DNA from: Deltaproteobacteria bacterium
GTDB taxonomy: Bacteria > Myxococcota > JADLHZ01
Assembly: GCA_020848545.1 (NCBI GenBank)
Contig: JADLHZ010000031.1
Coordinates: forward strand, 18,483 to 82,482
Length of the DNA: 64,000 nt
Reading direction: 5' to 3'
Position numbers and translations under genes: made by a program. The notes below the pieces were generated by a model, which worked only from the letters and a program-made list of their open reading frames with translations, made no database searches and was not told the origin of the DNA. The stretch's first letter is position 1. Every line of letters starts with the position of its first letter. Shown one piece after another: positions 2,255 through 39,824 of this stretch.

Positions 2255-2357
2255 GCGCTGACGCTGGCGATCCCTTCCGCCGAGAGGTGCGGCAGGGGGC
2301 TTGCATCATGTCCGGCGTGATGCAGCTTGGGATGCAAATGTTACCGCGCGGTGACGC

Positions 2358-6166: not shown

Positions 6167-6676
6167 ATGAGCTCGCTCTTCTTTCACCCGATGGTCGTTC
6201 ACTTGCCGATCGCGCTTGGAATCTTGATGCCCTTCGTCGCTGCGGGCGTGCTCGTGGCGATGTGGAAGAATTGGTTGCCGACGCGCGCGTGGCTGGGCGT
6301 CGTCTTGCTGCAAGCCTTGCTCGTCGGCACCGGCATCATCGCGATGCGCAGCGGCGAGGCCGAGGAGGAGCGTGTCGAGCGCGTGACCGGCGAGCCTGCG
6401 ATCGAAGCGCACGAAGAGGCGGCGGAGCAGTTCGTTTGGGCGAGCGGCGCGGTGCTCGGCGTGATGTTGGTCGCCGGTGCGCTGCGCCGATCGCGCTCCG
6501 GGCTGCCGCTCGCCGGCGCGGCCGCGCTCGGCACGTTGCTCGTGCTCGGCTTCGGCTACCGCACCGGAAAGGCCGGCGGGGCCCTCGTGTACGAGCACGG
6601 TGCGGCGCAGGCTTACGCGCACGCGGCAGCGGATGGGGCGAGAGCGAGCGGCGACGGCGACGACGACCATGACTAA
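6167..6676 (+). CDS. DUF2231-like membrane protein
   Basis: FFHPMVVHLPIALG is the HPxxxHxP motif. 4 TM helices with an acidic tail. Convergent with nnrS and overlaps it. Confidence 0.6.
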   Translation: MSSLFFHPMVVHLPIALGILMPFVAAGVLVAMWKNWLPTRAWLGVVLLQALLVGTGIIAMRSGEAEEERVERVTGEPAIEAHEEAAEQFVWASGAVLGVMLVAGALRRSRSGLPLAGAAALGTLLVLGFGYRTGKAGGALVYEHGAAQAYAHAAADGARASGDGDDDHD

Positions 6677-7827: not shown

Positions 7828-8420
7828 ACGGTGACCGCACCGACGACGAGCGCGAACGCGCCCATCGCGAAGGTACCGCCGCCCGGCAGGCTCGTCGTCG
7901 TGAAGTTCGCGATCTGCTTCGAGCCGATGATCGCCGGAGTGAAGCCTTCGACCTTCACCGGCGCGTCCGGGCTCAGGTTGTGACCATATATATAGAGGCG
8001 ATAGACGAAGCGGGCCATCGAGAACGCCGAGAAGTAGCCGGTGATCACGATGAGATCGAGCAGCGCCCGCACGTTGCCGATCGCCGCGACGCGCAAGGTG
8101 AGGAGCGCCAAGACGCCGATCGCGAATGGGATCCAGTCGAGATCGCTCAGCTCGGCGCGGTCGAGCTTCCTCATGCCGATGTAGTGGTTCAGCACGTTGA
8201 TCTCGTTGATGTCGGCGCCGTCGTGGCCGCCTTTGATCGTGTGCGCGTAGATGTCGATGCTCAGGCCGTTCCTATACTGCGGGGCCACCATCTCGATGCG
8301 CCAGAGCGGCGAGAAGAACGCGACGCCCAAGAGGAGGCAACTCGCGACGAGCACCGGTCGGGCGCTGAGAAAGAGCGGCTGCTCCAAGAAGACGTAGAAC
8401 TTTTGCAGCGCGACGCGCAT
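7791..8420 (-). CDS. 4-TM membrane protein in nos cluster (possibly NosB-like)
   Basis: Real start MRVALQKF at 8420 with GGGAG RBS. The upstream part of ORF 7791..8810 overlaps nosY and is not coding. 4 predicted TM helices. Overlaps nnrS start. Confidence 0.5.
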   Translation of the reverse strand: MRVALQKFYVFLEQPLFLSARPVLVASCLLLGVAFFSPLWRIEMVAPQYRNGLSIDIYAHTIKGGHDGADINEINVLNHYIGMRKLDRAELSDLDWIPFAIGVLALLTLRVAAIGNVRALLDLIVITGYFSAFSMARFVYRLYIYGHNLSPDAPVKVEGFTPAIIGSKQIANFTTTSLPGGGTFAMGAFALVVGAVTVWHLWAGKRAAG

Positions 8421-9657: not shown

Positions 9658-10547
9658 GGGAGCACCCGCACCTTCGCGGTCGGGAGCGCGTCGACCTGCG
9701 ACATGCCGAGGTCACGGACGGCGCGGTCGTGGTGGCGCATCAAGCCTTCGATCGCCGACAGCTTGTCCCTCTGCGTGAGCAGCGCCGCGTAGCGATCCGG
9801 CCCGGCCGCAAGAAAGCCGCGCGCGACGAGGAACGCCGCCGCCGCCGCCGCGTCAGCCTGCAGCCATACCTCCACGCGATACGCGCGCCGGTCGTCGAGC
9901 AGCTCGCTCACCGAGCCGTCGTGGATGACAGCGCCGTCGCGCAGCTCGACCACGCGGTCGACCAACTGGCGCACTTCGTCGAGGCGATGCGAGCAGAGGA
10001 TCACCGACGCGTTCGCGGGCCGCGCGGCCACTTGCTGGAAGAAGCTGACGCGGGCCTGCGGATCCAGGTTCGCCGTTGGCTCGTCGCAGACGAGGACCGG
10101 CGCGGCGCTGGCCAAAGCGAACGCCGCGAGCAGCTTCTGCTTCATGCCGCCCGAGAAATCGGCGAAGCGCTTCCTGCGCTCGGCGAGGACGTCGAGGCCG
10201 AAGGCGCGCGAGCGATCGACGACTTCGCCCTCGCTCACGCCGCGCAGCCGCGACCAGGTGCGCATGAGCTCGTGCAACGGCACGTCGATCGGCGGCGCGA
10301 TCTGCGGCACGTAGGCCACTTGCGACAACGCTTCGACCGGCCGCGCCGCGACGTCGTGGCCGAAGATGCGAATCACGCCGTCGAAGCGCAGGACGCCGAG
10401 CACCGAGCGCATCAGCGTGGTCTTGCCGGAGCCGTTGCTGCCGATGAGCGCCACGCGTTCGCCGGCGCCGATGGTCAACGACACACCGTTCAGCGCGGTC
10501 ACCTTGCCGAAGCGCTTGGTCACATGTGCGATCTCGACGCTCATCGG
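9654..10547 (-). CDS. nosF: ABC transporter ATPase NosF
   Basis: Start MSVEIAHV with GGAGG RBS (ORF upstream extension rejected). Walker A GSNGSGKT. Signature FSGGMKQK. Walker B LVCDEP. Confidence 0.85.
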   Translation of the reverse strand, partial: PMSVEIAHVTKRFGKVTALNGVSLTIGAGERVALIGSNGSGKTTLMRSVLGVLRFDGVIRIFGHDVAARPVEALSQVAYVPQIAPPIDVPLHELMRTWSRLRGVSEGEVVDRSRAFGLDVLAERRKRFADFSGGMKQKLLAAFALASAAPVLVCDEPTANLDPQARVSFFQQVAARPANASVILCSHRLDEVRQLVDRVVELRDGAVIHDGSVSELLDDRRAYRVEVWLQADAAAAAAFLVARGFLAAGPDRYAALLTQRDKLSAIEGLMRHHDRAVRDLGMSQVDALPTAKVRVLP

Positions 10548-12193: not shown

Positions 12194-14167
12194 TCACTGT
12201 GCCGACGCGGTCTTCAGCCGCGGCTTGACCAAGAAGTAGCCCGCCATCTCGAGGTGCAGTGCCGAGCAAAATTCGGTGCAGTACATCGGATAGACGCCGG
12301 CCTTGTCGGCGACGAAGGTGATGTTCTCGTGCTTGCCTGGCTCGAGGCTGACGTTGATGTTGTACATGTTGAGCGCGAAGCCGTGCGTCTGATCGTCCGC
12401 CTGCTCGAGGCTCGTCAGGTGCAGGTTCACGGTGTCGCCTTCGTTCACCTCGATGCGATCCGGCGTGAAGTGGCTGCGGATGAGCGACATGTAGACGTCG
12501 ACGGTGGTGCCCTTGCGATCGATGCGTTCTTTGCCGGCCTCGGCGCGGAAGGGATCGAGCTTCTCCGTATACGGGTTCGTGCCGACGGCGTACTTCATGA
12601 CCGGCTTCAGCTTGTCCATCTTGATCATCTGCGAGTAGTGCGGCTCGCCGATGGCGATGGGCATGTCGTAGATGAGCTTCATCTTTGGGCCGCTCGCGTC
12701 GATGAGCTGGAAGTTCTGCGGCAACAGTGGGCCGACGCGGCTGAAGCGATCCATCGACATCTTGTTCATCGCGACGACGTACTTGCCGTCGGGGCTCACG
12801 GTGTCGCCCTCGGCCGCCATGATGTGGCCGATGTTGTAGTGGACTGGAAGCTTCTCGAGCAGCTTCATTTCCTTCAGTGACCACTTGGCGACGACGCTCT
12901 CGATGAAGACGGAGGTGTAGACGTTGCCCTTGTCGTCGAAGACCGAGTGCAGTGGTCCCAGGCCGATTTCGACTTGGCCGCGGATGCTGTCCTTGAACGC
13001 GAGGATCGGCACACCATAGGCGTCCTTGCCCTCGAACTTCTTCTCTTCGATCAGCGTCTTCAGCTTGCTGAACTCGTAGACCGTCGCGTGCGTGTCGAGC
13101 TTGCCGCCGACGACGACGGCGGTTCCGTCAGGCGTGACGTCGCAGCCGTGCGGGCTCTTCGGCTCGCCGACGAGCGTCAACACGCCCTCGGCGCCTGAGA
13201 CTTCGAGCGGCAACACTTTGAAGCCTTTGATCGTCTTCGCCTTGCCGGCTTTGACGAGCTGCTCGGCCTTTTTCCAGTTGATGATGTGCAAGTAGTCCAT
13301 GTCGTTCTGTGAGGCGCCGGACTCGATCGGGGGCTTGCCTTCCAGCACGCCACCGGTCGCCATCTCGGTGTTGAACGAGTTGATGAAGACGTAGCCGTCG
13401 GAGCCGAGCTTGCCGGCGTCGGCGAGATCCTGCGTGTAGGGCGGAAGCTCGACGGCCCAGCTGTTCTCGGGCTCGATGCGGCCGTGCTCCTTGTTGAACT
13501 TCCAGAACATCGCGAGCCCGCGGTACTTGTCCTTGTACTCGCCGATCGCAGCGTATTCGCGACCGAGCGGCGCCGGGTACTGGCTCGTCTCGACGATGTA
13601 GGTCGTGTTCGGATCGACGAAGGCGCCGCCGTGATCGCTCGAGATCAACGGATTGGCGACGATCTGCTTGGTCATGAAGTCGCTGAGATCGATGACCGCG
13701 ACGCGCGCGTTCGCCTTGTCGTTCACGAAGAGGTACTTGCCGTCGTAGTCGCCGTTCGTCTCGGAGAGGTTCGGGTGGTGCACGTCGGCCCAGGTGATCG
13801 ACTTGCCGTTCTGCTTGCCCTGATCGAACATCTCTTGGCCGCTTTTCGATCCGTAGCCGTAGCCTTGCCACGGCTCGGGGGCGAACACGCCGATCAGCTT
13901 CAGCATGCGCATCGACGGCACGCCGATCGCGAGCACTTGGCCGCCGTGACCGCCCGACGCGAAGATCATGTACTCATCGGCTTTACCGCCAGGTGTGTAC
14001 GTCTTCAGCGCGGCCTCGACGTCGGCCTCGGTGAGTTGGCGCGCGGTCATCAGCTCTTTGACTGACGAGCTGCCGGCGGGCTGGGTAGGTGCGCTGCCGC
14101 CTGTGCAACCGATGACGAGCGCGGCAGCGAGCGCCCATCCGAGAACGATGACGTGGTTTTGTTTCAT
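12194..14167 (-). CDS. nosZ: Nitrous-oxide reductase NosZ, clade II (Sec-type lipoprotein signal)
   Basis: CuA motif YPMYCTEFCSALHLEMAGY at the C-terminus. Beta-propeller CuZ domain histidines. Start MKQNHVIVLGWALAAALVIGCTGG is a lipobox, not Tat. ORF upstream extension rejected. Confidence 0.92.
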   Translation of the reverse strand: MKQNHVIVLGWALAAALVIGCTGGSAPTQPAGSSSVKELMTARQLTEADVEAALKTYTPGGKADEYMIFASGGHGGQVLAIGVPSMRMLKLIGVFAPEPWQGYGYGSKSGQEMFDQGKQNGKSITWADVHHPNLSETNGDYDGKYLFVNDKANARVAVIDLSDFMTKQIVANPLISSDHGGAFVDPNTTYIVETSQYPAPLGREYAAIGEYKDKYRGLAMFWKFNKEHGRIEPENSWAVELPPYTQDLADAGKLGSDGYVFINSFNTEMATGGVLEGKPPIESGASQNDMDYLHIINWKKAEQLVKAGKAKTIKGFKVLPLEVSGAEGVLTLVGEPKSPHGCDVTPDGTAVVVGGKLDTHATVYEFSKLKTLIEEKKFEGKDAYGVPILAFKDSIRGQVEIGLGPLHSVFDDKGNVYTSVFIESVVAKWSLKEMKLLEKLPVHYNIGHIMAAEGDTVSPDGKYVVAMNKMSMDRFSRVGPLLPQNFQLIDASGPKMKLIYDMPIAIGEPHYSQMIKMDKLKPVMKYAVGTNPYTEKLDPFRAEAGKERIDRKGTTVDVYMSLIRSHFTPDRIEVNEGDTVNLHLTSLEQADDQTHGFALNMYNINVSLEPGKHENITFVADKAGVYPMYCTEFCSALHLEMAGYFLVKPRLKTASAQ

Positions 14168-14182
14168 GATCGACGCAGTGAG

Positions 14183-14197
14183 CAAAAGAGGTGCCAC
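14183..14197 (-). promoter_or_regulatory. Sigma-54 promoter (perfect TGGCAC-N5-TTGC) for nosZ
   Basis: Minus strand reads TGGCACctcttTTGC. The -12 GC lies about 16 nt upstream of the nosZ ATG, so the transcript would be leaderless. Confidence 0.7.
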
Positions 14198-14248
14198 CGA
14201 CGAAAAGCGCGTAGCTTCGTGTTCTTGTGCGCGAGTGTTTCCCTCTCG

Positions 14249-14287
14249 TAACGAAGTCATCCCCGCCGTAGCGAAGCGGTAACGAAG
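14249..14287. promoter_or_regulatory. Three direct repeats GTARCGAAG between the divergent nosZ and FixH-like promoters (UAS candidate)
   Basis: gtaacgaag at 14249, gtagcgaag at 14268, gtaacgaag at 14279. The last two form CGAAGCGGTAACGAAG. Confidence 0.45.
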
Positions 14288-14313: not shown

Positions 14314-14331
14314 TGGTTCGGAAGCTGCAAC
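14314..14331 (+). promoter_or_regulatory. Sigma-54-like promoter (TGGttcg-gaag-cTGCA) for the FixH-like/OMP genes
   Basis: GG/GC spacing is exactly 10. Predicted TSS coincides with ATG 14342 (leaderless). Divergent from the nosZ promoter. Confidence 0.5.
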
Positions 14332-14341
14332 CTCTCGGCGC

Positions 14342-14722
14342 ATGAAACTCGCGTATGCTTTTTGGGGGCTCGCGTTCTTGGCGGCGTGCGGCCCATCGCC
14401 GACCCCTGCGTCCAGCGACGGCCTCCGCGTCGAGCTCGCGTTCGAGAGCGGAGAGGCTGCTCTCGGCGACAACACGCTGCTCGTGCGCGTCTACGACCAA
14501 GGCGATCGGCCGATGGACGCCGAGGTCACGATGCACCTGCACATGCCGGCGCACGGACACGACCACGGCGATGCCAAGCCACCCGAGCTCACGCGGCGTG
14601 ACACCGGCGTGTACGCGCTCTCACCCGTGCGCTTCTCGATGGCAGGCGAGTGGAGGGTACACGTCAAGTGCAACTGCCCGATGGGCAACGGCGAGGCCGA
14701 GCAGATGGTCATGGTGCGCTGA
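14342..14722 (+). CDS. FixH/YtkA-like periplasmic lipoprotein (putative Cu-binding)
   Basis: Start MKLAYAFWGLAFLAACG (lipobox). Contains HLHMPAHGHDHG His/Met-rich segment and a VRFSMAGEWRVHVKC beta-sandwich. Divergent from nosZ. Confidence 0.5.
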   Translation: MKLAYAFWGLAFLAACGPSPTPASSDGLRVELAFESGEAALGDNTLLVRVYDQGDRPMDAEVTMHLHMPAHGHDHGDAKPPELTRRDTGVYALSPVRFSMAGEWRVHVKCNCPMGNGEAEQMVMVR

Positions 14723-14735
14723 GCGGCGGTGGTCG

Positions 14736-15623
14736 ATGTTCACGCGCAGCCTGATCCTCTTTGCGTTCGCGATCGTTGCGGGAGTTCCGGCGCGCGTTGA
14801 AGCAGGCTGCTGCTTCTCGACCACGGCGACGACGACCGCGCGCCTCGCGACTTGGGAGAAGGGCGTCGCTGGCTTGTCGGCGTCGTACGTGCGCGAGCTC
14901 GGCTACTTCAGCTCCGCAGCGCGCGCGGTGCCGCTCGGCGCCGGCACCGCGGATCAACAGCTTCGCTTCGATCTCTTCGGCCTCGTGCGTGTCACCGACG
15001 CCCTGACGCTCTCGCTGCTCATGCCGCTGTCGATGAACGCACGCTCGGCCTCGGGCGTCTTTGCGCTCGGCGGTGGCCTCGGCGACATCGCCGTCGGCGC
15101 TCGCTACGACTTGCTCCAGTTCGATCACTCGAATCGTCCCGGCCTCGCGCTCATCGCCGGCATCGCGATCCCGACCGGTCGCGCGATCGGCGCGGCGGAG
15201 CGCGCGCTCGCCGTCGACGCGACGGGCCGCGGCACGGCCATCCTCAACCTCGGCGTGAGCACCGAGTGGGCGTCGGAGCCGTGGTTCGTGCGCGGCGATC
15301 TCGTGGGCGGCATTCCGATGCCGACGGCGCAGGACGGAACCTGGGCGTGGCTCTCGCCGACCCTCGATCTCACGCTGATGGGCGGTGTGCGCGCGCATCG
15401 TTACTTGTTCTTCGGCGCCATCGCGCGCTTCGGGGTGCAGCTGCCGACGCGATCGCAAGCGTTCGGATACGATATGGCGCTCGGCGGCGGCGTCGCGTTG
15501 AAGCCGGATCCGCAGTGGGCCGTGCTCGTGAACGTCAGCGTCAGTCTGTTTGCGCCCGGCGCCGGCATGAACCGGAATGCGCCGCTCACCGCGAGCCTGG
15601 CGCTCCGCTATGCAGCCTGGTGA
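14736..15623 (+). CDS. Secreted outer-membrane beta-barrel protein (MetA-pathway/transporter-like family)
   Basis: Signal peptide MFTRSLILFAFAIVAGVPARVEA. Alternating amphipathic beta-strands. C-terminal aromatic residue W. Confidence 0.5.
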   Translation: MFTRSLILFAFAIVAGVPARVEAGCCFSTTATTTARLATWEKGVAGLSASYVRELGYFSSAARAVPLGAGTADQQLRFDLFGLVRVTDALTLSLLMPLSMNARSASGVFALGGGLGDIAVGARYDLLQFDHSNRPGLALIAGIAIPTGRAIGAAERALAVDATGRGTAILNLGVSTEWASEPWFVRGDLVGGIPMPTAQDGTWAWLSPTLDLTLMGGVRAHRYLFFGAIARFGVQLPTRSQAFGYDMALGGGVALKPDPQWAVLVNVSVSLFAPGAGMNRNAPLTASLALRYAAW

Positions 15624-15745
15624 AGCCGGTGGTCGCCCTAGGCTGCGCTGATGTTACGCAGCAGTAACTAGGATCCCACCGTTCGGTAACCCGCGGGGGC
15701 TGCGCCGGCTTGCAAGTGTGCACGGCGTTTGCAAAAGCGAGCGGG

Positions 15746-16207
15746 ATGATCACCCGAATCCTCCTGATGCTCGCGCTCGGCAGTGTCGTTCAAGATGGAC
15801 CGAAGAAGCTGCCGCTCCCGGGCTACATCTCACCACAGTTGCGCAAGGTGCTCGACAAACGCATGGAGCATCACGGCCGCGGGGCGATCGGCCTTTCGAT
15901 CGCGGTCGTCCTCCTCGCGCACGACGACGTCGCGGAGCTCGCGCTCGGGCTCGCGGAGCAGCCAGGCCTCGCGCGCCCCCGTCTCGGCGAAGAAGGCACC
16001 CTCAACGCGACGCTGCCGGCGCAGTTCTTTTCGTTTCAAGACCAGCTGCGCGAGCGCGCCAAGGAGCTCGCGGCGGCGGCGAAGCAGAAGAACAACGCGA
16101 AGATGCACGCGGCGCTCGGGCGCGTCACCGAGACGTGCATGACTTGCCACGCTGTTTACTTGAACGGCCCAGGCAGCGAAGAGAAGTGGTGGCCTCGAGA
16201 CGAATGA
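15746..16207 (+). CDS. Cytochrome c'-like (class II c-type cytochrome) protein
   Basis: Signal peptide. Helical ~150 aa. Single CMTCH haem motif near the C-terminus, as in cytochrome c'. Confidence 0.6.
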   Translation: MITRILLMLALGSVVQDGPKKLPLPGYISPQLRKVLDKRMEHHGRGAIGLSIAVVLLAHDDVAELALGLAEQPGLARPRLGEEGTLNATLPAQFFSFQDQLRERAKELAAAAKQKNNAKMHAALGRVTETCMTCHAVYLNGPGSEEKWWPRDE

Positions 16208-17888: not shown

Positions 17889-18823
17889 GCCGCCTGAAGA
17901 GCGCACTCGTCACCGGCGCGACGACGCCGCTCGGCCGCAGCTTGTGTGCGCGGCTGTTGGCGAGTGGCTGCGAAGTGCTGGCGGTGGGGCTCGAGGCCGA
18001 GAGCGCTGCGCGCTTTCTGATCCCCGAGGCCGCGGCGTATGCAGCCGCCGATCTCGCCAAGCCGCGCGAGCTGCACGATCTCGTGTTTGGGCCGGCGAAG
18101 GCGCGATCGATCGACACCGTGTTTCACTTGGCGACGCATCGCAGCCTCGGCGTCGAAGGCGAGCGTGTGCACGCGCTGAACGTCGAGGCGTTGCGCCAGC
18201 TCATCGCGCACTGCGAAGCGCATCCGACGATCGCGCGCCTCGTCTACCGCTCGTACGCCGAGGTGTACCGCGTGGATCAGCGGCTGCCGAACGTCATCGA
18301 CGAGGAGCACCCGCTCGATCATGGCGCCGGACGCCCGCAGTGGCTGCGCGACCGCGTGGAGGCCGACGGCGTGGCGTGCGCGCGCATGGGCATGACGAAG
18401 CTCGAGATCGCGGTCCTGCGCTGCGCCGACGTCTTCGCCTCGGGCACCGGATCGCAGATCTACGACTACGTGCGTTCGCGGGTGTGCTTCAAGCCGCTCG
18501 GCTTCGATCCCATGATCAACCTGTTGTCGCTCGAAGACGCGGCAGAGGCCCTGTTTCTCGCCGGCGCCGCCGAGCGGGGCCAGGGCGTCTTCAACGTGCC
18601 GGGCGCCGACACGATGCCGCTCGGTTTGTGCATTCGCTCTGCGAAGCGCATCGCCGTGCCGCTGCCGGGACCGCTGCTCTTGCCGCTCTATGCGCTGAGG
18701 CGGCGGATCATTCGCACCGAGTTCTCGTACGGGCTCTATAAAGGACGCATGCACTTTCCCGGCATCCTCGACGGCCGTCGTGCGCGTGAGGTGCTCGGCT
18801 TCCAGCCGGCCGGGGTCAGCTGA
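17885..18823 (+). CDS. NAD-dependent epimerase/dehydratase (SDR family)
   Basis: N-terminal Rossmann motif ALVTGATTPLGRSL. GTGA overlap with upstream stop. Confidence 0.75.
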   Translation: MSRLKSALVTGATTPLGRSLCARLLASGCEVLAVGLEAESAARFLIPEAAAYAAADLAKPRELHDLVFGPAKARSIDTVFHLATHRSLGVEGERVHALNVEALRQLIAHCEAHPTIARLVYRSYAEVYRVDQRLPNVIDEEHPLDHGAGRPQWLRDRVEADGVACARMGMTKLEIAVLRCADVFASGTGSQIYDYVRSRVCFKPLGFDPMINLLSLEDAAEALFLAGAAERGQGVFNVPGADTMPLGLCIRSAKRIAVPLPGPLLLPLYALRRRIIRTEFSYGLYKGRMHFPGILDGRRAREVLGFQPAGVS

Positions 18824-19721
18824 CCAGCCCGTCTCCGCGCACGATGAGCACGCTGCGATCGGCGTTGTTCGCGATCCGCCCGGCGGTCGTTCCGAGCACG
18901 CGGTCGATCGGATCGTAGCCGTGTGAGCCGATGACGATGAGGCCGGCGTCTTTACCGCGTGCGATGTCGAGGACGACGTCAGCGGGCGTGCCGATGCGCG
19001 CTTCCGTCTCGGCGGCGATGGCGTCCGGCAGGGCGCCGCGGACTTGCTCGAGCTGCGTCTTCTCACGTTGCACGAGCATCGCCATGAGCTCATCCGGCCG
19101 CGCACCCCACACCGCCGAGGTGATGTCGGCGGGCGGCTGCACCGCGCGGATCAGCGTGAGGCGCCCGCGGCTCGGCCGCGCGAGGGCTTCGGCGGCCGCG
19201 AGCACGCGCTGCGAACGCTCGGAGCCGTCATGCGCGACGGCGATGCGCTCGAAGCCGACCGCCGCCTTCGCGCCCTTTGCTTGCCGCGCGATCAGCACCG
19301 AGCAGTCGGCGCGGTTCGCGATCTTCGCCGCGGTGGTGCCGAGCAAACGCTCGACCGGCCGGTACGTGTGCGCGCCGATGACGATGATCGCGGCGTGGTG
19401 CGCGATCGCCGCGTCCTTGATCACGCGCCACGCCGGGCCGGCCTCGACCTTCTCGTCGATCACCGTCCCTTGGCGAAAGCTCGACGCTGCCGTAGCGACC
19501 GCTTTGCGCGCGGCCGCGTCCATCTCGTTCCAGATCGTCGAGTCGTTGAAGGCAGCGAGCTCGGGCGGAACGAGCGCCTGCAGCTCCATGCCTTCGACGG
19601 CGGAGATCAGCGCGACCTTTGCGTCGAGCCGATCGGCCATCAGGCGCGCCGCTTCAACGACGAGCGCCGCGCGCGGAGACGGGTCGACGGCGACGACGAT
19701 GACTCTGTTCTTCGTGCTCAT
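18816..19721 (-). CDS. Tandem universal stress protein (2x UspA domains)
   Basis: Start MSTKNRVIVVAVD. Two USP domains with VIGSHG/VIGAHT motifs. Confidence 0.8.
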   Translation of the reverse strand: MSTKNRVIVVAVDPSPRAALVVEAARLMADRLDAKVALISAVEGMELQALVPPELAAFNDSTIWNEMDAAARKAVATAASSFRQGTVIDEKVEAGPAWRVIKDAAIAHHAAIIVIGAHTYRPVERLLGTTAAKIANRADCSVLIARQAKGAKAAVGFERIAVAHDGSERSQRVLAAAEALARPSRGRLTLIRAVQPPADITSAVWGARPDELMAMLVQREKTQLEQVRGALPDAIAAETEARIGTPADVVLDIARGKDAGLIVIGSHGYDPIDRVLGTTAGRIANNADRSVLIVRGDGLVS

Positions 19722-19895
19722 GCTCTGCCGCGGTTTCACGCCTCGTGCCATGCGCCAGGAACGAGGACTGGGGGCTCTTTGTGTCACCGAACGGTAGCAC
19801 GAGTGGTGGTCGAGATTTCCGAACGGTAACTCTCACCCTGTAATCGCACGTCGTCGGCGCGCACGCACTTTGCATTCTTCCTCGCGGAGGTGCCG

Positions 19896-20678
19896 ATGAA
19901 AGGCACGATCAGGTCGTTTTACGAGCGCTACCCGCGGCGGTGGAGTTACCCGGTTGCGGGGCTCGTGCTCGCGCTCGGCGCGCCGATCGGCTTCTTCGTC
20001 GTGCGCGCGCTCTTCGCCGGTCACATTCCGTCGCCGATGTGGATCGAGGTCGAGCTGCGGGAGCGCTTCGATGCTTACGTCTACCTCACCTTCGCCACGG
20101 CGATCGTCTTCTCCTGGGCCGGCCGCGTCGTCGGTGTCGAGCAAGATCGCGTGCGCGCGGACTCGCTGACCGATCCGCTCACCAGCCTGCCGAACCGGCG
20201 CTTCGCGCAAGAACGCGCCGAGGCGCTGCTCTTGCGCGGGGATCCGCGCGTCTCGGTGTTGCTCATCGATCTCGACGGCTTGAAGCAGATCAACGAGAAG
20301 CACGGCCATGACGGCGGCGATCGTGCGCTCTGCGCCGTCGCGGCGACGCTGCGTAAAGTCTGCCGGCGTGAAGACGTGTTCGCGCGCTACGGCGGCGACG
20401 AGTTCATCGTGCTCTTGCCGAAGATGGTCGCCGCCGACGCGATGCGTGTCGCCGAACGCGTGTGCGCGACGATGACGAAGACGGCGCAGACGAACGGCCT
20501 TGGTCCACTCTCGGTGTCCATCGGGGTCGCCGATACCGAGACGGCCGCGACGAACACGCTGCTCGGGCTGGTGCAGGCGGCCGATGCGGCGCTGCAAGCC
20601 GCGAAGCACGAAGGCAAGAACCGTGCGAAGCTGGCCCGCTCGTTGCACAAAGCCGCCGGCAAGGGAGCCGTCTCATGA
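19896..20678 (+). CDS. GGDEF-domain diguanylate cyclase with N-terminal TM region
   Basis: RYGGDEF active site. GGAGG RBS 6 bp upstream of ATG 19896. Confidence 0.85.
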   Translation: MKGTIRSFYERYPRRWSYPVAGLVLALGAPIGFFVVRALFAGHIPSPMWIEVELRERFDAYVYLTFATAIVFSWAGRVVGVEQDRVRADSLTDPLTSLPNRRFAQERAEALLLRGDPRVSVLLIDLDGLKQINEKHGHDGGDRALCAVAATLRKVCRREDVFARYGGDEFIVLLPKMVAADAMRVAERVCATMTKTAQTNGLGPLSVSIGVADTETAATNTLLGLVQAADAALQAAKHEGKNRAKLARSLHKAAGKGAVS

Positions 20679-21127
20679 CCACGAAGAAGATCCTTGCCGC
20701 CCTCGACTTCTCCAAGTTCTCGCAGGAGGTCGTCAACTTCGCCGCTGACTTCGCGCGCCGTTACGATGCGTCGCTCACGCTCCTGCACGTCGCGGATGAG
20801 CCGAACCGCGTCTTCCCCGAGGGCTTCGTCGCGATCATGCCGGCGCGGACCACCGAGTTGCTGAATCTGCTCGAGATGGCGCTGGCCGACGCAAAGAAGG
20901 AGGCGATCGCGGCTGGCGCAACGAACGTGAGCACGATGCTCGTGAAGGGCGTGCCCTTCGCCGAGATCGCGCAGATCGCGCAGGACAAAGCGTACGACAC
21001 GATCATCGTCGGCACCCACGGCCGCACTGGGCTCATGCACGCGCTGCTCGGCTCCGTCGCCGAGAAGGTGGTGCGCAGCGCGCCATGCACCGTGATCACC
21101 GTGCGCGATCGCGCCGCGGCGAAGTGA
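20675..21127 (+). CDS. Universal stress protein UspA
   Basis: Start MTTKKILAALD. ATGA overlap with GGDEF stop. AAGGGAG RBS. Confidence 0.8.
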   Translation: MTTKKILAALDFSKFSQEVVNFAADFARRYDASLTLLHVADEPNRVFPEGFVAIMPARTTELLNLLEMALADAKKEAIAAGATNVSTMLVKGVPFAEIAQIAQDKAYDTIIVGTHGRTGLMHALLGSVAEKVVRSAPCTVITVRDRAAAK

Positions 21128-23009: not shown

Positions 23010-24329
23010 TCATACGAGCCGCATTTTCTTCGCCGCGTCGAGCAGCTCGTCGCGAAATCGCGGCGAAGCGATGGCGATGAGCCCGAGCGCTCGTTCGCGC
23101 ACGGATTTGCCTTTGAGATCGAAGACGCCGTGCTCGGTGACCGCAAAATGCGTGTCGGTCCGGGGTGTCGTGACCGGCCCGCTCAGCTTTGGCACGATGC
23201 GCGACACGCTGCCGTTCTGGGCGGTCGATTGGAACGCAATGATCGACTTGCCGCCGCGCGAGGCGTAGGCGCCGCGCACGAAGTCGACCTGGCCGCCGGC
23301 GCCGCTGTACTGCTGGCCAGCGACGAACTCCGAGTTACAGGCGCCGAAGAGATCCATCTCGAGCGTCGCGTTTACCGACACCACGTTGTCGAGCTGCGCG
23401 ACGATGGCCGGATCGTTCACGTAGCTCACCGGGTAGCTCTCGACGCCCGGGTTGTCGTTGATGAAGTCGTAGAGCCGCGCGTCGCCCATCGCGAAGGTGA
23501 AGACGGTCTTGCGCCGGTTGAGCGCCTTCAGCCGGTTGGTCACGACGCCCCGCTCGATGAGATCGACGAGCCCGGGCGTCAACAGCTCGGTGTGGATGCC
23601 GAGATCTTGGTGGTTGACCAGCGCTCGGCACACCGCGTTCGGCACCGCGCCGATCCCCATCTGGAGCACGGCGCCGTTCGGCACGAGCTCGGCGATGCGC
23701 CGGCCGATGAGGTCGTCCACCGGGCGCACCGGCGCCGGCGCACACTCGAGCAGCGGCGCGTCGTGCTCGACGATCGCATCGACCTCGGCAACGTGCAGCA
23801 ACGAGTCGCCGAACACCCGCGGCATCCGCGGGTTCACTTCGACGATTAAGCGCTTCGCGGAGCGCGCGACTTGCGAGCCGTAGTCGTTGTTGGTGCCGAA
23901 GGTGAAGTAGCCGTGCTCGTCCATGGGCGACACCGTCACCACGAAGGTATCGATGGCGACGTGCTCGGAGAGGAAGCGCGCCGATTGGCTGAAGTGGTTT
24001 GGCACGAAATGGATGACCGTGCGTTCCTCTGCGCGGCGCATGAGCTCCCGCTCGATCGCCGACAAGAACATGCAGTGTGGGGCGATGCGATCGAGCAGAT
24101 CGAAGGCGAGGATCGTGCTCTTCGCGTGCTCCTTCGACTCGAAGTAATAGACGCGCAGGTCGCGGAGCGCATCGTGACGGACGCGGTCGGCGATCGCCGC
24201 GAGCAGCGCCGGCGGCTCCGACACGCCCATGCCCATCGAGAGCTTGGAACCGCTGGCGATCGAAGACACCGCCGCCGCGGGCGTCGCCAGCTTCGCTGCG
24301 TATTCGCCGCGAGCGTTCACTTCGGCCAT
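23010..24329 (-). CDS. Acetyl-CoA hydrolase/transferase family protein (4-hydroxybutyrate CoA-transferase-like)
   Basis: 439 aa with N- and C-terminal AcetylCoA_hydro domains. Conserved GIG and EMDLFGACNSE regions. Confidence 0.8.
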   Translation of the reverse strand: MAEVNARGEYAAKLATPAAAVSSIASGSKLSMGMGVSEPPALLAAIADRVRHDALRDLRVYYFESKEHAKSTILAFDLLDRIAPHCMFLSAIERELMRRAEERTVIHFVPNHFSQSARFLSEHVAIDTFVVTVSPMDEHGYFTFGTNNDYGSQVARSAKRLIVEVNPRMPRVFGDSLLHVAEVDAIVEHDAPLLECAPAPVRPVDDLIGRRIAELVPNGAVLQMGIGAVPNAVCRALVNHQDLGIHTELLTPGLVDLIERGVVTNRLKALNRRKTVFTFAMGDARLYDFINDNPGVESYPVSYVNDPAIVAQLDNVVSVNATLEMDLFGACNSEFVAGQQYSGAGGQVDFVRGAYASRGGKSIIAFQSTAQNGSVSRIVPKLSGPVTTPRTDTHFAVTEHGVFDLKGKSVRERALGLIAIASPRFRDELLDAAKKMRLV

Positions 24330-24475
24330 ACGAACCTCTGACGCGTCACCCGATCACTTTTCGTGCCACTTTCGCATACTTGTGGCGAAGCGGAAGATGT
24401 TTCGGCTTGGTAACGCCGCCGATGGGATCGTCACCGACAGGTGCGTTTCCCTCGGTGTCTTCGCGGTGAACTCCT

Positions 24476-24516: not shown

Positions 24517-24879
24517 ATGGAGACGATCTGGGTCCTGGTCTGCAACCAAAAGAGCGCTGTGATCCTGAGCGCCAAAGCGCGGACCGCAGCTCCTCAGATC
24601 GTGGAGACCATCGGCAATCCCGACGAGAGCGACCCTCTGGTCTTTGCGCGGCGCTTGGCGGCGATGCTCGAGAGCGCGGCCGATATGGGCGGCTTCGATC
24701 GCCTCGTCGTCATGGCGCCGGCGCCGTTTCTCGCCAGCCTCGAGGACGTGTTCCATGCCCCGGTGCGAGGGCGCATTGCCCTCACCATCCAGGAAGACAT
24801 CGCCGAATGGCCGATGCCGGAGATCGTTGCGTCGGTACGCAAAATCATCGATGAGCAGGTGCGTGTAGCCGGCGCCTAG
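24517..24879 (+). CDS. Host_attach (baeRF1-like) family small protein
   Basis: IWVLVCNQKSAVIL ... GFDRLVVMAPAPFLASL ... DIAEWPMPEI matches the Host_attachment signature. GAGGTG RBS. Sits downstream of a sigma-54 promoter. Confidence 0.55.
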   Translation: METIWVLVCNQKSAVILSAKARTAAPQIVETIGNPDESDPLVFARRLAAMLESAADMGGFDRLVVMAPAPFLASLEDVFHAPVRGRIALTIQEDIAEWPMPEIVASVRKIIDEQVRVAGA

Positions 24880-24903: not shown

Positions 24904-26268
24904 ATGCTTTCGATCTTGCTCGTAGACGATGAGCCTTCGATCCGGTTGGCGGTCGGCGATGCCCTCGCCGGCAACGGGCACAAGGTGACGCGCGCCAGTG
25001 ACGGCGGCGAGGCACTCGCGCTGCTCGATGCACAGGTCTTCGACCTCGTGGTCACGGACATCAGCATGCCCAAGGTCGACGGGCTGACGCTCTTTCGTAA
25101 GTTGCGCGAAGCGAGCCCGTCGACCGACGTCATCTTGATGACCGCGTACGGCAAGGTGACCGACGCCGTCGAGGCGCTCAAGCAGGGTGCTGAAGACTAC
25201 CTGACGAAGCCTTTTTCTACGGAAGAGATGCTCGTGCGCGTGCAGCGGATCGACGATCGCCGCGCGTTGAAGCGCGAGCTGCAAGCGGCCAAGTCCGAGC
25301 TGACGGGGGGTGGCATCATCGGCCAATCGCCGGTGATGGTGCGCCTGCTCGATCGCATCGATACGATCGCAGCGAGCGATGCCAGCGTCTTGATCCTCGG
25401 CGAGAGCGGCACGGGCAAGGAGCTCGTCGCCAGGCGCTTGCACGATCAGAGCGCGCGCAAGGCGAAGCCCTTCGTCGCCGTCAACTGCGCCGCGTTTCCC
25501 GAGACGCTGATCGAGGCTGAGCTCTTCGGCCATGAGCGCGGTGCGTTCACTGGCGCGGCGCAGCGGCGCGAAGGCAGGTTCAAGGCGGCCGACGGCGGCA
25601 CGCTCTTTCTCGACGAGGTGGCCGAGATCCCGTTGCCGGTTCAGGCGAAGCTCCTGCGCGTGCTGCAAGAAGGGGTGTTCGAGCCGATCGGAACGAACAC
25701 GCCGATCAAGGTGAACGTCCGCGTCATCTCGGCCACACACAGAGATCTGCGCGCGCGAATCAAAGAGCACGCGTTCCGCGAGGATTTGTTCTATCGCTTG
25801 AACGTGCTCGACGTGCACCTGCCGCCCCTGCGCGAGCGTCGTGGCGACTTGCCGCTGCTCGTGGAGGCGTTCTTGAAGCGCGCAGTCGGTCGCGGCGGTG
25901 CGCAGCCGGCGGGGATCTCGCCGCGCGCGTGGGCAGCGCTCTCGGACTACTTGTTTCCGGGCAACGTGCGCGAGCTTCAGCACGCGATAGAGCACGCCGT
26001 CGTGCTCGCCCGCGGCGGCGAGATCGATCTGCACCACCTGCCGCGCGATATCGTCGGCATCGCCGAGGCCAAGAAGGATCAAGCGACGACTGCCGTACGG
26101 ACGCTGGCGGTGGCGGCCAAGGAGTTCGAGCGCGAATACCTCTTGCGCGCGCTGCACCAGGCCGACGGCAAGAAAGGACGCGCGGCGGACCTGCTCGGCA
26201 TCTCGCGCAAGAACCTCTGGGAGAAGCTCAAGGGTCATGACATCGCAGACAGCGACGACGACGCATGA
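24904..26268 (+). CDS. Sigma-54-dependent Fis-family response regulator (NtrC-like EBP)
   Basis: REC domain (D54 region VVTDISMP). AAA+ sigma-54 activation domain with GESGTGKE and GAFTGA. C-terminal Fis HTH. Confidence 0.9.
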   Translation: MLSILLVDDEPSIRLAVGDALAGNGHKVTRASDGGEALALLDAQVFDLVVTDISMPKVDGLTLFRKLREASPSTDVILMTAYGKVTDAVEALKQGAEDYLTKPFSTEEMLVRVQRIDDRRALKRELQAAKSELTGGGIIGQSPVMVRLLDRIDTIAASDASVLILGESGTGKELVARRLHDQSARKAKPFVAVNCAAFPETLIEAELFGHERGAFTGAAQRREGRFKAADGGTLFLDEVAEIPLPVQAKLLRVLQEGVFEPIGTNTPIKVNVRVISATHRDLRARIKEHAFREDLFYRLNVLDVHLPPLRERRGDLPLLVEAFLKRAVGRGGAQPAGISPRAWAALSDYLFPGNVRELQHAIEHAVVLARGGEIDLHHLPRDIVGIAEAKKDQATTAVRTLAVAAKEFEREYLLRALHQADGKKGRAADLLGISRKNLWEKLKGHDIADSDDDA

Positions 26269-26338: not shown

Positions 26339-27418
26339 ATGATCCGGGTCTTTCTCGTGGACGACGACGAGGACGACTACGTCCTCACGCGTGGCCTCCT
26401 CGGCGACATTCCCGGGAGCTTCGAGCTCGCGTGGATGCCGTCGATCGACAAGGCGCGCGCCGCGTTGCGCGACACAGTGCCCGACCTCATCCTGCTCGAC
26501 TATCTCCTTGGTGCCGAGAGCGGCCTCGATTTCCTGAAGGAGCTGCGCAGAGCCGGGCTCGGGCTGCCAGTGATTATCCTCACTGGGCAAGGCGATCGCG
26601 AGATCGACATGGCGGCCATGGCGGCCGGGGCCACGGACTACTTGGTGAAGAGCGAGCTCTCGGCCGCGATCTTGGACCGGGCGATCCGCTACGCGATGTC
26701 GGTGAGCGAGCTGCACCGAAAGCTGCTCGAGGATCACGAGCGCTTGCAGCAGATGGAGAAGCTTTCTGTCGTCGGGCTGATCGCCGCGGGGATCGTGCAC
26801 GAGGTGAGCAACCCGCTGACCGGCGTCATGAGTCTCGTGCAAGCGCTGCACGACGGCAAGGCGGGCGACTCGCGCGACGAGTACTTCAAGGCGGTCAAAG
26901 ACGGGCTCGAGCGGATGCGCGTCACCCTGCGATCGTTGCTCGATCTCGCGCGCGAGCAGCCGTTGACGCTCGCTGAGGTGGACGTCGCAGAGCTCGTGGC
27001 GGCCTGCTTTCGCCTGATGGCGGCCACGCTGCGCTCGCGCGGCATCACGCCGGTGCAGGACGTTCCCGCTGGCTTGCGCGCGCGCGCCGATCGATCGCGG
27101 GTGATTCAGGCGATCCTGAACCTGATGATGAACGCCGCCGACGCGACCCCCTCCGGCGGCAGCATCACGGTCAGCGTCACGAAGAAGCCCGGCAGCATCG
27201 GCATCGTCGTCACCGACACCGGCGCCGGCATTGCGCCCGCGATCGCCGAGCGGATCCTCGAGCCCTTCTTCACGACGAAGTCGGTGGGGAAGGGCACGGG
27301 CCTCGGCCTACCCTTCGTCGTCCAGACGGCGAAGCTCCACGGCGGCGACCTGACCATCGCCAGTCAGGTGGGCAAGGGGACGACGATGACGATGTGGCTA
27401 CGCGATGACGCGCGGTGA
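26339..27418 (+). CDS. Hybrid histidine kinase with N-terminal receiver (REC-HisKA-HATPase), cytoplasmic
   Basis: N-terminal REC (LLDYLLGAESG). H-box IVHEVSNPLTG. N, G1 and G2 boxes. No TM segment. Confidence 0.85.
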   Translation: MIRVFLVDDDEDDYVLTRGLLGDIPGSFELAWMPSIDKARAALRDTVPDLILLDYLLGAESGLDFLKELRRAGLGLPVIILTGQGDREIDMAAMAAGATDYLVKSELSAAILDRAIRYAMSVSELHRKLLEDHERLQQMEKLSVVGLIAAGIVHEVSNPLTGVMSLVQALHDGKAGDSRDEYFKAVKDGLERMRVTLRSLLDLAREQPLTLAEVDVAELVAACFRLMAATLRSRGITPVQDVPAGLRARADRSRVIQAILNLMMNAADATPSGGSITVSVTKKPGSIGIVVTDTGAGIAPAIAERILEPFFTTKSVGKGTGLGLPFVVQTAKLHGGDLTIASQVGKGTTMTMWLRDDAR

Positions 27419-28070: not shown

Positions 28071-28520
28071 TTAGTCTTCGTCCAAGAGATCGAGCACCCA
28101 AGCGAGCGCCGCTAGCGCGTCGACGGCGGTGAAGATGCCGACGACGCGTCCCTTGTCTGCGACGACGGCCGAGCCGAACTTCTTGCGCGCCATCACCCGC
28201 ACCGTCTCGTCCAGCTTCGCCAGCGGCGCCACCACGTAGGGCTCCGACGTCATCGCCTCTTCGACCGCGATCGCGCCCGGATCGACACCGTCGAGGGTCT
28301 CGACCATCTCGAGATCGCGCTGCGACACGATGCCGACCAGCTTGCCGCCGTCGAGCACGGGCAAGTGGCGGATGCCGTGCTCGCGCATCAGCTCGTGCGC
28401 TTTCTGCAGTGTTTGCTTCCTACCAATCGTATGCGGCGTGGCGGTCATGTACTTGTCGACCGTCTCGGCGACGTGCTTGCCCCTGATCGAGATCGTCTGT
28501 GCTCGTGGCCTAGGCGACAT
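28071..28520 (-). CDS. CBS-domain pair protein
   Basis: Two CBS motifs (HLPVLDGGKLVGIVSQRDL and AVVADKGRVVGIFTAVD). GGAGGA RBS. Sigma-54 promoter upstream. Confidence 0.8.
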   Translation of the reverse strand: MSPRPRAQTISIRGKHVAETVDKYMTATPHTIGRKQTLQKAHELMREHGIRHLPVLDGGKLVGIVSQRDLEMVETLDGVDPGAIAVEEAMTSEPYVVAPLAKLDETVRVMARKKFGSAVVADKGRVVGIFTAVDALAALAWVLDLLDED

Positions 28521-28545: not shown

Positions 28546-28561
28546 TGCAAAGTAGGGACCA
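28546..28561 (-). promoter_or_regulatory. Sigma-54 promoter (TGGtccc-tact-TTGCA) for CBS - small protein - CheY operon
   Basis: Minus-strand sequence TGGTCCCTACTTTGCA. About 17-nt leader with GGAGGA SD before ATG 28520. Confidence 0.6.
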
Positions 28562-28600
28562 AGGTCGAATGCCTGGGCTCATCGGTGGAATGGTTTCGAA

Positions 28601-28630
28601 TCGGTAACGCCCGCCCGTTGGTGCGTTACC
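28601..28630. promoter_or_regulatory. Palindrome CGGTAACGC-N12-GCGTTACCG upstream of CBS-operon sigma-54 promoter (UAS candidate)
   Basis: Perfect 9-bp inverted repeat, 45-75 bp upstream of the -24 element. Confidence 0.5.
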
Positions 28631-28636
28631 GCCGGG

Positions 28637-29044
28637 TCAGCGGCTGTTGTGGCAGCTCGTGCAGGATCCGGTCAGCGCGCCAGCGAGATAGTAGTTCGGA
28701 GGGTCGGCCTCGGCTGCCAGCTTCGCGGCCGTTACCGCGCGCCGAAAGTCATCGAGGTGCTCGTCGATCTTCGGGTGATTCGTCGGCTTGCCGTCGAGCG
28801 TCGCCGCGTGTGCTTGCATGAGCGAGAGCCGGTCGACCACGTCTTTTCCCACGACGAGCGGCGCCGGTCGCTGCAGCAGGTTTTCGAGCTCGACGACGTC
28901 CCCCGCGAGGAGCCACATCGTCGTCCTCAACTCCGCGCGCGGAATGTAGTGGAAAGTCGGCGCGTAGGTCACGGCGCGAATGCTTCCGGTCAGCGGTGCG
29001 CAGGCGAGAAAAAGCGCGGCGAACGGGAGGAGCTTGCGGGTCAT
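28637..29044 (-). CDS. Cytochrome c'-like lipoprotein (second copy)
   Basis: Lipobox LFLACAP. Helical. C-terminal CTSCH haem motif. Confidence 0.55.
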   Translation of the reverse strand: MTRKLLPFAALFLACAPLTGSIRAVTYAPTFHYIPRAELRTTMWLLAGDVVELENLLQRPAPLVVGKDVVDRLSLMQAHAATLDGKPTNHPKIDEHLDDFRRAVTAAKLAAEADPPNYYLAGALTGSCTSCHNSR

Positions 29045-39750: not shown

Positions 39751-39824
39751 CCGTGAAAGATGGCCGTGGCCGAAATCGCAAGATCCGGAGTGTTCCGCCT
39801 CGACGCTGGGGCTACGTTCGCGGC

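Follow-up and report, generated by a model that had tools for sequence, protein, structure and literature searches.

Phased GTTACC-N4-GGTAAC boxes beside sigma-54-type promoters of nosZ, hemN and stress-protein genes in an uncultured myxobacterium: probable enhancer sites of an NtrC-type regulator

Introduction

What could tie a clade II nosZ gene to hemN, to a cytochrome c' gene, to a GGDEF cyclase gene and to genes for universal stress proteins (USP) and a CBS-pair protein in the genome of an uncultured myxobacterium? The question is raised by a stretch of 64,000 nucleotides with 66% G+C (the whole stretch is called the window in what follows), which covers positions 18,483 to 82,482 of the forward strand of contig JADLHZ010000031.1 (GenBank assembly GCA_020848545.1, Myxococcota). 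A first-pass annotation of this DNA had noticed that GGTAAC-containing words recur in six of its regulatory regions, and had proposed a common regulator, either the enhancer-binding protein (EBP) encoded in the window or another factor. In many soils clade II nosZ is the chief biological sink of N2O and, to our knowledge, little is known about its regulation; in the literature we found nothing on sigma-54 control of this gene. Here we describe the recurring element as a dyad box, and conclude that the boxes are probably enhancer (upstream activating) sites of a sigma-54 regulon under the NtrC-type EBP encoded at 24904-26268.

Results

A dyad box recurs in six intergenic regions

The recurring unit is an imperfect dyad with the 35-site consensus tGTTaCC-N4-GGTAAC, a palindrome of GGTAAC that is 17 nt long as modelled (7 + N4 + 6); its core is the 16-bp GTTACC-N4-GGTAAC, the right half of which is better kept than the left. 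A forward matrix of 17 nt was trained on 8 sites from contigs L060, L061 and L063 only, with no window sites among them; the training sites were chosen by eye in orthologous intergenic regions of 100-170 bp. The best seven distinct matches of this matrix in the window (at 19782, 14236, 2340, 15652, 19814, 28593 and 24398) all reach at least 14 bits, and all are intergenic, being located at hemN, nosZ/ytkA, cytochrome c', USP/GGDEF, CoA-transferase/EBP operon and CBS. In 300 first-order Markov simulations the mean number of such matches was 0.20 and the maximum 2 per window. Because the re-aligned dyad gives seven matches where 0.20 are expected, the recurrence in six regions is real. The reverse scan, with a matrix derived from the window, gave 10 matches in L060 and L063 at a threshold of 11 bits; nine are intergenic and lie upstream of GGDEF, USP, CBS, nosZ/ytkA and YceI genes. 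The loci anchored on nosZ in 57 other Myxococcota, which lack the motif and have not preserved the order of genes near nosZ, were used as a control set and not for footprinting; these 870 kb contain one match of at least 14 bits.

The next-best match of the matrix in the window, TGTCACTAGATCGTAGC (39735-39751, plus strand, 12.8-14.5 bits), lies where a glycosyltransferase gene meets an AraC/methyltransferase (Ada-like) gene. As it lacks both a partner box and an obvious sigma-54 promoter, it is probably a chance match.

The words quoted in the first-pass annotation are present in all six regions, but some of their coordinates were wrong. The two copies of CCGAACGGTA, placed at 19773 and 19811, start at 19787 and 19819, both within the 174-bp divergent intergenic region between the USP and GGDEF genes; the other words were located at 14272 (CGAAGCGGTAACG), 28597 (CGAATCGGTAACG), 15681 (GTTCGGTAAC), 24406 (CTTGGTAAC) and 2340 (GTTACCGCGCG). 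The view that an extended 12-13-mer exceeds chance finds no statistical support: the literal pattern CGAAnCGGTAACG is not enriched in the window, CGAANCGGTAACG at up to 2 mismatches giving 6 matches where 7.9 (7.85) would be expected, and CCGAACGGTARC with up to 2 mismatches is marginal, its 18 matches (10.95 expected) being reached in 4 of 100 shuffles. The CGAA portion of the proposed motif falls in the unconserved N4 spacer or in the weak left half-site. GGTAAC alone, for which the annotation had expected about 18 copies by chance, occurs 15 times on both strands, not above the composition expectation, but seven of the 15 occurrences fall in the approximately 6% of the window that is left intergenic by an approximate, partly hand-corrected gene map based on G+C at third codon positions. 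The dyad is not equally common in coding sequence, and it is kept upstream of orthologues, as described below. The alternative word GTARCGAAG (up to 1 mismatch) is mildly enriched, with 34 matches against 21.8 expected; its 3 exact copies all lie in the nosZ/ytkA region and overlap boxes, and the dyad model was preferred.

The boxes are paired and helically phased

The boxes of the window are as follows.

19782 to 19798, plus strand: USP/GGDEF box 1, TGTCACCGAACGGTAGC, the top matrix match (18.3 bits)
19814 to 19830, plus strand: USP/GGDEF box 2, GATTTCCGAACGGTAAC, centre 32 bp from box 1
14236 to 14252, plus strand: nosZ/ytkA box, TGTTTCCCTCTCGTAAC (17.9 bits)
14268 to 14284, minus strand: weaker nosZ/ytkA partner, CGTTACCGCTTCGCTAC (6-9 bits), which includes CGAAGCGGTAACG; centre 31 bp from the 14236 box
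15652 to 15668, plus strand: cytochrome c' box 1, TGTTACGCAGCAGTAAC (15.4 bits)
15674 to 15690, plus strand: cytochrome c' box 2, TCCCACCGTTCGGTAAC, the site first annotated at 15680; centre 22 bp from box 1
24398 to 24414, plus strand: CoA-transferase/EBP-operon box, TGTTTCGGCTTGGTAAC (14.1-14.5 bits), first annotated at 24403
24429 to 24445, plus strand: putative weak partner, CGTCACCGACAGGTGCG, proposed from the sequence (below 5 bits); centre 31 bp from the 24398 box
28592 to 28608, plus strand: CBS box 1, GGTTTCGAATCGGTAAC, first annotated at 28595
28625 to 28641, minus strand: CBS box 2, GCTGACCCGGCGGTAAC, inverted; centre 32 bp from box 1
2340 to 2356, minus strand: hemN box, CGTCACCGCGCGGTAAC (17.7 bits)

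For the strong boxes, the distance to the best partner is 30-32 bp in 16 cases, 21-22 bp in five and some other value in two. Centre spacings of 31±1 or 21-22 bp correspond to three or two helical turns, and paired boxes are therefore located on the same face of the helix. Helically phased pairs of dyads are the classical layout of enhancers. Another candidate for the nosZ/ytkA partner, GTCATCCCCGCCGTAGC at 14256-14272, scores below 5 bits and is 20 bp off, and the site at 14268-14284 was taken instead.

Sigma-54-type promoters accompany the boxes

Each of the nine genes that flank boxes has a -24/-12 match of at least 16.5 within 70 nt of its start codon and in the right orientation, as scored by a simple sigma-54 consensus, whereas 14 of 58 other genes score at least 16 (Fisher p = 1.9e-5). 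The scan of 19650-19950 revealed no sigma-70-type promoter in the USP/GGDEF region. The promoters are listed here.

14181 to 14196, minus strand: nosZ, TGGCACCTCTTTTGCT, near-consensus and the best sigma-54 match of the window
14314 to 14329, plus strand: ytkA-like/outer-membrane-protein operon, TGGTTCGGAAGCTGCA; the same 16-mer is found in L063
15718 to 15733, plus strand: cytochrome c', sigma-54-like, GTGCACGGCGTTTGCA
19735 to 19750, minus strand: tandem USP, TGGCACGAGGCGTGAA, with -12 C changed to A; predicted +1 about 3 nt before the ATG at 19721
19859 to 19874, plus strand: GGDEF, sigma-54-like, GCGCACGCACTTTGCA, with the first G of the -24 GG replaced
24353 to 24368, minus strand: CoA-transferase, TGGCACGAAAAGTGAT; near-identical TGGCACGAAACGTGAT in L063
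24476 to 24491, plus strand: baeRF12-EBP-hybrid kinase operon, TGGTGTGCGCTTTGCA
28546 to 28561, minus strand: CBS, TGGTCCCTACTTTGCA
2290 to 2305, plus strand: hemN, CGGCAGGGGGCTTGCA; kept as CGGCAGGAAAATTGCA in L072

The distance from the centre of the proximal box to the 5' end of the -24 element is 36-41 bp at seven promoters and 49 bp at nosZ, which places the proximal boxes at eight of the nine promoters at about -62 to -75. Enhancers of the NtrC family are typically located 70-150 bp from the start site, and these boxes thus lie at the promoter-proximal end of the usual range. The divergent USP/GGDEF and CoA-transferase/EBP-operon regions have nearly the same build, which reads on the plus strand as the minus promoter TGGCACG-N4-GTGAW, about 39-40 bp, box 1, 31-32 bp, box 2, about 37-39 bp and the plus promoter.

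Two variants of the promoter recur. In TGGCACG-N4-(G/A)TGA(A/T), the -12 C is replaced by A (by T in L066); this form is located upstream of USP, CoA-transferase, YceI and other genes and was seen in the window (19735-19750 and 24353-24368), L060, L061, L063, L065 and L066. In the second, YGCAC-N5-TTGCA, which four GGDEF orthologue regions have kept, the -24 GG is without its first G. At nosZ (14167-14196), ytkA (14314-14344), cytochrome c' (15718-15748) and tandem USP (19719-19750), 12-14 nt separate the end of the -12 element from the start codon, and the predicted +1 therefore lies only 2-3 nt before the ATG, which would make these four mRNAs nearly leaderless. The remaining five promoters have a leader of 11-50 nt, most of them with a Shine-Dalgarno sequence. 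The GGDEF gene also contains, near its 3' end, a strong sigma-54-like match (TGGCCCGCTCGTTGCA, 20632-20647, plus strand, 19.5 of 20.5), 27 nt before the USP gene at 20675 and with no enhancer box nearby.

Boxes and promoters are kept upstream of orthologous genes

GGDEF orthologues with 62-73% identity led to contigs L060, L061/L062 and L063, the last of which is syntenic with the window; L058 was left out of the conservation evidence because it comes from the same population (100% identical proteins). The upstream regions in L060, L061 and L063 cannot be aligned with the window overall, yet two features are common to them. One is a pair of boxes, TGTCACC-N4-GGTA(A/G)C or TTYCC-N4-SGTAAC, 21 or 31-32 bp apart; the other is the element YGCAC-N5/6-TTGCA, located 20-30 nt before the start codon in the four GGDEF orthologue regions. 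Both USP/GGDEF boxes have counterparts in these three contigs, the second box being 21 or 31 bp from the first, and TGGCACG-N4-RTGAA is also present upstream of the L061 USP gene. The nosZ/ytkA intergenic region of L063 contains a box pair, including TGTCACCCTGCGGTAAC, together with a perfect sigma-54 promoter of nosZ, TGGCACCGTGCTTGCT. Promoters are thus kept in the orthologous loci of nosZ, ytkA, GGDEF, USP and hemN. A search of metagenomes with the tandem-USP protein found a single distant match only.

The hemN box deserves separate mention, as it ends 2 nt before the TTG start codon, which conserved HemN N-termini confirm. In L071/L072 (hemN orthologue 69% identical) two boxes 32 bp apart occupy a 55-bp stretch directly before hemN, downstream of a conserved CGGCAG-N5-TTGCA element, and nothing else on these contigs, scanned in full, reaches 9 bits. 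In L073 (hemN 65% identical) GCTACCAAGCGGTAGC stands directly before the likely start codon. The box has the same position and orientation in the window, L071/L072 and L073, and it may serve downstream activation or act as a brake. L073, a relative of lower G+C (57%), has sites at 2088-2104 and 8002-8018: the identical palindrome GCTACCAAGCGGTAGC stands before hemN, and its 14-nt core TACCAAGCGGTAGC occurs again between an Rrf2 regulator gene and an operon with a multicopper-oxidase/cytochrome c fusion.

The nearest relatives of the nosZ of the window (63-79% identity) come from uncultured Polyangiaceae, Labilithrix and other Myxococcales metagenome-assembled genomes (MAGs). Most of the 57 Myxococcota nosZ loci (L001-L057) have a GG-N10-GC promoter 40-90 nt before nosZ, for example TGGTTCGTCGATTGCA. 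In many Labilithrix-like loci (L016, L022, L023, L025, L028, L031, L034, L035, L037, L039 and L054), CTCTCA-N5-TGAGAG palindromes are located just upstream, and they look like a different enhancer box for the same gene. In L003, from another Polyangiaceae MAG, five boxes of the GCGCA-N5-TGCGC type known from NmpR of Myxococcus xanthus (two of them perfect, with a period of 27-30 bp) lie at 9712-9837, upstream of a sigma-54 promoter and nosZ, and similar pairs are found in L042 and L033; this suggests that in other lineages nosZ is under NmpR-type control via the canonical box.

The boxes co-occur with orthologues of the EBP

The EBP at 24904-26268 is an NtrC-family response regulator of the type REC-AAA+-HTH_8. 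Among the best 120 homologues listed, identity is 64-88%, and the recognition region of the HTH, LLGISRKNLWEKLK, is invariant in 45 inspected rows of these 120. Ten homologues with cluster records were checked, and all come from uncultured MAGs, of Polyangia or Myxococcota where named. The protein reached no equivalog cut-off in NCBIfam, being below those of NtrC and AtoC.

Loci with EBP orthologues contain the same boxes, usually as pairs 30-31 bp apart, followed by sigma-54 promoters. In L064 (EBP 81% identical) a box pair is located upstream of a porin operon and is followed by TGGCACCAAGGTTGCT, 1.4-1.6 kb downstream of the EBP gene. In L065 (80%) a box pair lies upstream of the EBP gene, and boxes also precede three USP genes, two of these USP box regions being shared with divergent BON and hemerythrin genes. 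L066 (72%) has a box pair between a CoA-transferase gene and a USP-EBP operon, and L069/L070 (65%) have boxes upstream of a cbb3 oxidase, a USP-CBS operon and a PAS-kinase-EBP operon, the kinase-EBP operon of L069 being preceded by one box. Counting the window, at least four genomes therefore have boxes before the EBP-containing operon, the others being L065, L066 and L069. An 84%-identical EBP and the GGDEF orthologue of L060 each lie on a contig of 132,170 bp, which is probably one and the same. On the P0007 contig a baeRF12/Host_attach-family gene stands directly upstream of the EBP gene, as it does in the window. On these grounds the link between box and EBP is a strong case of guilt by association, short of proof.

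A PAS kinase, a stand-alone receiver and a REC-HisKA hybrid kinase adjoin the EBP in L064 and L066. In the window the hybrid kinase at 26339-27418, which has an NmpS-like architecture, is the likely phosphodonor of the EBP. Pfam revealed no PAS or protoglobin kinase among most of the remaining open reading frames of the window, scanned with the exception of one of 1278 amino acids at 49405-53241, and the sensor kinase is therefore probably encoded outside the window.

Genes of the window

Gene identities were taken from Pfam and NCBIfam.

1538-2254, plus strand: ScdA/hemerythrin-like
2358-3686, plus strand: hemN (TIGR00538), start TTG at 2358
3688-4119, plus strand: UPF0093
4126-5526, minus strand: multicopper oxidase
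5523-6140, minus strand: GerE-type (GerE/LuxR-type) regulator
6673-7827, minus strand: NnrS
7.8-12.2 kb, minus strand: nos accessory genes (NosD, ABC transporter ATPase, permease)
12194-14167, minus strand: nosZ, Sec-type (clade II)
14342-14722, plus strand: YtkA-like lipoprotein (ytkA)
14736-15623, plus strand: outer-membrane protein, in an operon with ytkA
15746-16207, plus strand: cytochrome c'
about 16.2-18.8 kb, plus strand: cation-efflux, acyltransferase and epimerase genes
18816-19721, minus strand: tandem USP, ATG at 19721
19896-20678, plus strand: GGDEF, ATG at 19896
20675-21127, plus strand: USP downstream of GGDEF
about 21.1-22.5 kb, plus strand: FAD monooxygenase
about 22.4-23.0 kb, minus strand: YceI
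23010-24329, minus strand: acetyl-CoA hydrolase/transferase (CoA-transferase)
24517-24879, plus strand: baeRF12/Host_attach protein, first gene of the EBP operon
24904-26268, plus strand: EBP, NtrC-family response regulator, REC-AAA+(Sigma54_activat)-HTH_8 by Pfam (MCC6807495.1)
26339-27418, plus strand: REC-HisKA-HATPase hybrid kinase, by Pfam
28071-28520, minus strand: CBS-pair protein
34205-34645: cNMP-binding protein (Crp/Fnr-type candidate)

The gene at 14342-14722 had been labelled FixH-like, and it is the YtkA-like lipoprotein of this list. A second cytochrome c' gene (53271-53666, plus strand) has only about 29 bp of intergenic DNA upstream and no enhancer box. At the 3' end of the ScdA/hemerythrin-like gene GCGCAAGGG is repeated three times in tandem (2201-2227) and codes for a short, repeated basic tail.

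Discussion

The reading that we prefer can be described as a series of steps. Dimers of the EBP would bind to the boxes, the adjacent hybrid kinase would phosphorylate the EBP, and the resulting oligomer would contact the sigma-54 RNA polymerase and use ATP to open the promoters. The promoters of nosZ, the ytkA-like operon, cytochrome c', tandem USP, the GGDEF operon, CoA-transferase, CBS and hemN would be targets, the proximal box serving one promoter or two divergent ones; the EBP operon would also be a target, which amounts to autoregulation. The boxes would thus serve activation rather than repression. Both the kinds of genes involved and the parallel with NmpRSTU of M. xanthus point to oxygen limitation or redox state as the most probable signal. 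EBP dimers on phased dyads at sigma-54 promoters are the textbook mechanism; the box with its regulon is a new instance, the type of control a known one.

Several observations weigh against this reading. The partners at 14268 and 24429 are weak, and promoters deviate from the consensus at bases that are usually invariant: USP and CoA-transferase have A or T for the -12 C, and GGDEF and cytochrome c' have C or T for the first -24 G. The hemN box lies downstream of the only recognisable sigma-54-like promoter (2290), which is atypical for activation. The gene rpoN is absent from the window. In L067, which has an EBP homologue of 64% identity, no box was found; L068, its close counterpart, has one box upstream of the EBP operon. 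As the training sites were picked by eye, the forward scan is partly circular and was not wholly blind; the control loci, together with later confirmations that had not been planned, speak against self-deception. Finally, Myxococcota encode dozens of EBPs, and the assignment of the boxes to this one is therefore made by co-localisation only.

This last point opens the way to another explanation, namely that the boxes are real and are bound by a different factor, a co-activator or repressor: another EBP, the GerE/LuxR-type regulator at 5523-6140 or a Crp/Fnr-type protein such as that at 34205-34645, the neighbouring EBP being only one of the targets. A GerE-type regulator is indeed encoded in the window and a REC-GerE gene on the P0006 contig, L071/L072 have a Crp-type gene about 1.1 kb before hemN (divergent from an intervening gene of 341 amino acids), and the position of the hemN boxes in the leader is better suited to a repressor. 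Against this, wherever the boxes occur they accompany -24/-12 promoters, which require an EBP; their phased dyads about 31 bp apart fit NtrC-type enhancers, including those of NmpR; they recur upstream of the EBP operon in the four or more genomes named above, while no LuxR or Crp gene is consistently near boxes across L060-L073; and the FNR-type box occurs in none of the six regions. We therefore regard a different factor as unlikely, and nothing in the evidence favours the LuxR-type control that the first-pass annotation had also named. Its more general proposal of a common regulator, the EBP or another factor, gains support from the sigma-54-type promoters, the phased dyads, the conservation at orthologues and the co-occurrence with EBP orthologues.

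That short GGTAAC words simply recur by chance in a GC-rich window of 64 kb is highly improbable. The literal 13-mer pattern is not enriched, many 12-mers with two copies are expected in 64 kb, and the total of GGTAAC does not exceed the expectation from composition, all of which would fit chance; but a matrix trained elsewhere found seven matches, all intergenic, where 0.2 are expected, the positions are kept upstream of GGDEF, nosZ/ytkA and hemN orthologues, the spacing of pairs is tightly clustered and the control loci have 1 match per 870 kb. Equally little credit can be given to the idea that the boxes are structural elements of RNA or DNA, either hairpins of terminators or attenuators or a small dispersed REP-like repeat. 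The inverted CBS boxes could form a 9-bp stem just past the stop codon of the upstream gene, and the hemN boxes lie in a transcribed leader; yet the CBS hairpin lacks a U tract and does not exceed shuffled sequence in stability (z = -0.97), the other loci have boxes in direct orientation 21-32 bp apart, many of them upstream of predicted transcription starts, and conservation is confined to the half-sites, with no stem that shows compensatory changes. The enhancer sites of an NtrC-type EBP thus remain the preferred explanation.

How does this regulon relate to known systems? Enteric NtrC at glnAp2 binds to TGCACCA-N3-TGGTGCA, with two strong sites centred about 32 bp apart. The likeness extends to dyads of the form xCACC...GGTxx, two sites three helical turns apart, a -24/-12 promoter and a phosphorylated REC-AAA+-HTH activator. 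The differences are that the spacing is ACC-N4-GGT here and ACC-N5-GGT there, that the outer bases differ, that the sites of the window are located at about -65 and -95 instead of -108 and -140, and that the gene set is unrelated to nitrogen assimilation. Control of denitrification genes by FNR, NNR and Dnr of the Crp family works at sigma-70 promoters, via a TTGAT-N4-ATCAA box near position -41.5. The physiological logic is the same, as nosZ, haem c' proteins and hemN are induced at low oxygen or with NO, but the promoters here are of the sigma-54 type, and the 17 matches of the FNR-type box in the window (up to 2 mismatches) include none in the six regions. DosR/DevR of Mycobacterium tuberculosis is the NarL/LuxR-type regulator of the dormancy regulon, with sigma-70 promoters and a 20-bp box. 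It resembles the present case in its hypoxia-type regulon rich in USP and CBS proteins and in its two-component relay with more than one kinase, but the 20-bp box is unrelated to that of the window.

The NmpRSTU system of M. xanthus is a relay of the protoglobin kinase NmpU, the double-receiver protein NmpT, the hybrid kinase NmpS and the NtrC-like regulator NmpR (PMC6211767, PMC11841059). NmpR is active at low oxygen and acts on sigma-54 promoters (PMC11841059; NmpRSTU: PMC6211767). It binds GCGCA-N5-TGCGC dyads, usually two per promoter and 14-15 bp apart, that is, 29-30 bp from centre to centre, and its targets are a CBS gene and its own operon, nmpUTS, a USP gene, a P-type ATPase with a cbb3 oxidase, and hemN-hemerythrin (PMC11841059). 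The parallels comprise a REC-AAA+-HTH_8 regulator, probably fed by several kinases of which one is a REC-HisKA-CA hybrid, the pairing of dyad boxes upstream of sigma-54 promoters at about 29-32 bp from centre to centre, boxes at the regulator's own operon, and boxes at the CBS, USP, hemN and EBP-operon regions of the window, to which the hemerythrin of L065 and the cbb3 oxidase of L069 can be added. The box itself is different, GTTACC-N4-GGTAAC instead of GCGCA-N5-TGCGC, and the NmpR box is absent from the six regulatory regions when up to 1 mismatch is allowed. In the related loci L064 and L066, where the gene order is U-T-S-like, the first kinase has PAS domains, no protoglobin being seen, and the REC protein has a single receiver, unlike NmpU and NmpT; and the gene set of the window adds clade II nosZ, cytochrome c', the GGDEF cyclase and the CoA-transferase.

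It is possible, and we put this forward tentatively, that the system is the Polyangia counterpart of the NmpR relay, in which the DNA specificity was rewired from GCGCA-N5-TGCGC to GTTACC-N4-GGTAAC, a PAS sensor stands in place of the protoglobin sensor, and clade II nosZ, cytochrome c' and the diguanylate cyclase were captured. If this is true, oxygen would directly gate N2O reduction and cyclic di-GMP (c-di-GMP) signalling via sigma-54 in uncultured myxobacteria of soil and sediment, and it would do so with an unusual promoter grammar: TGA or TGT at -12, YG at -24, near-leaderless transcripts and enhancer boxes in the hemN leader. The regulon of the NmpR type would then extend beyond Myxococcus, and the comparison suggests that the same physiological regulon is wired via different DNA boxes across myxobacterial lineages. 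By way of a concrete, testable cis-element and a candidate regulator, nosZ is linked in uncultured Polyangia to a stress programme of low oxygen (USP, CBS, hemN, cytochrome c' and c-di-GMP), and the main value of this finding is that it makes the regulation of clade II nosZ in these bacteria open to testing.

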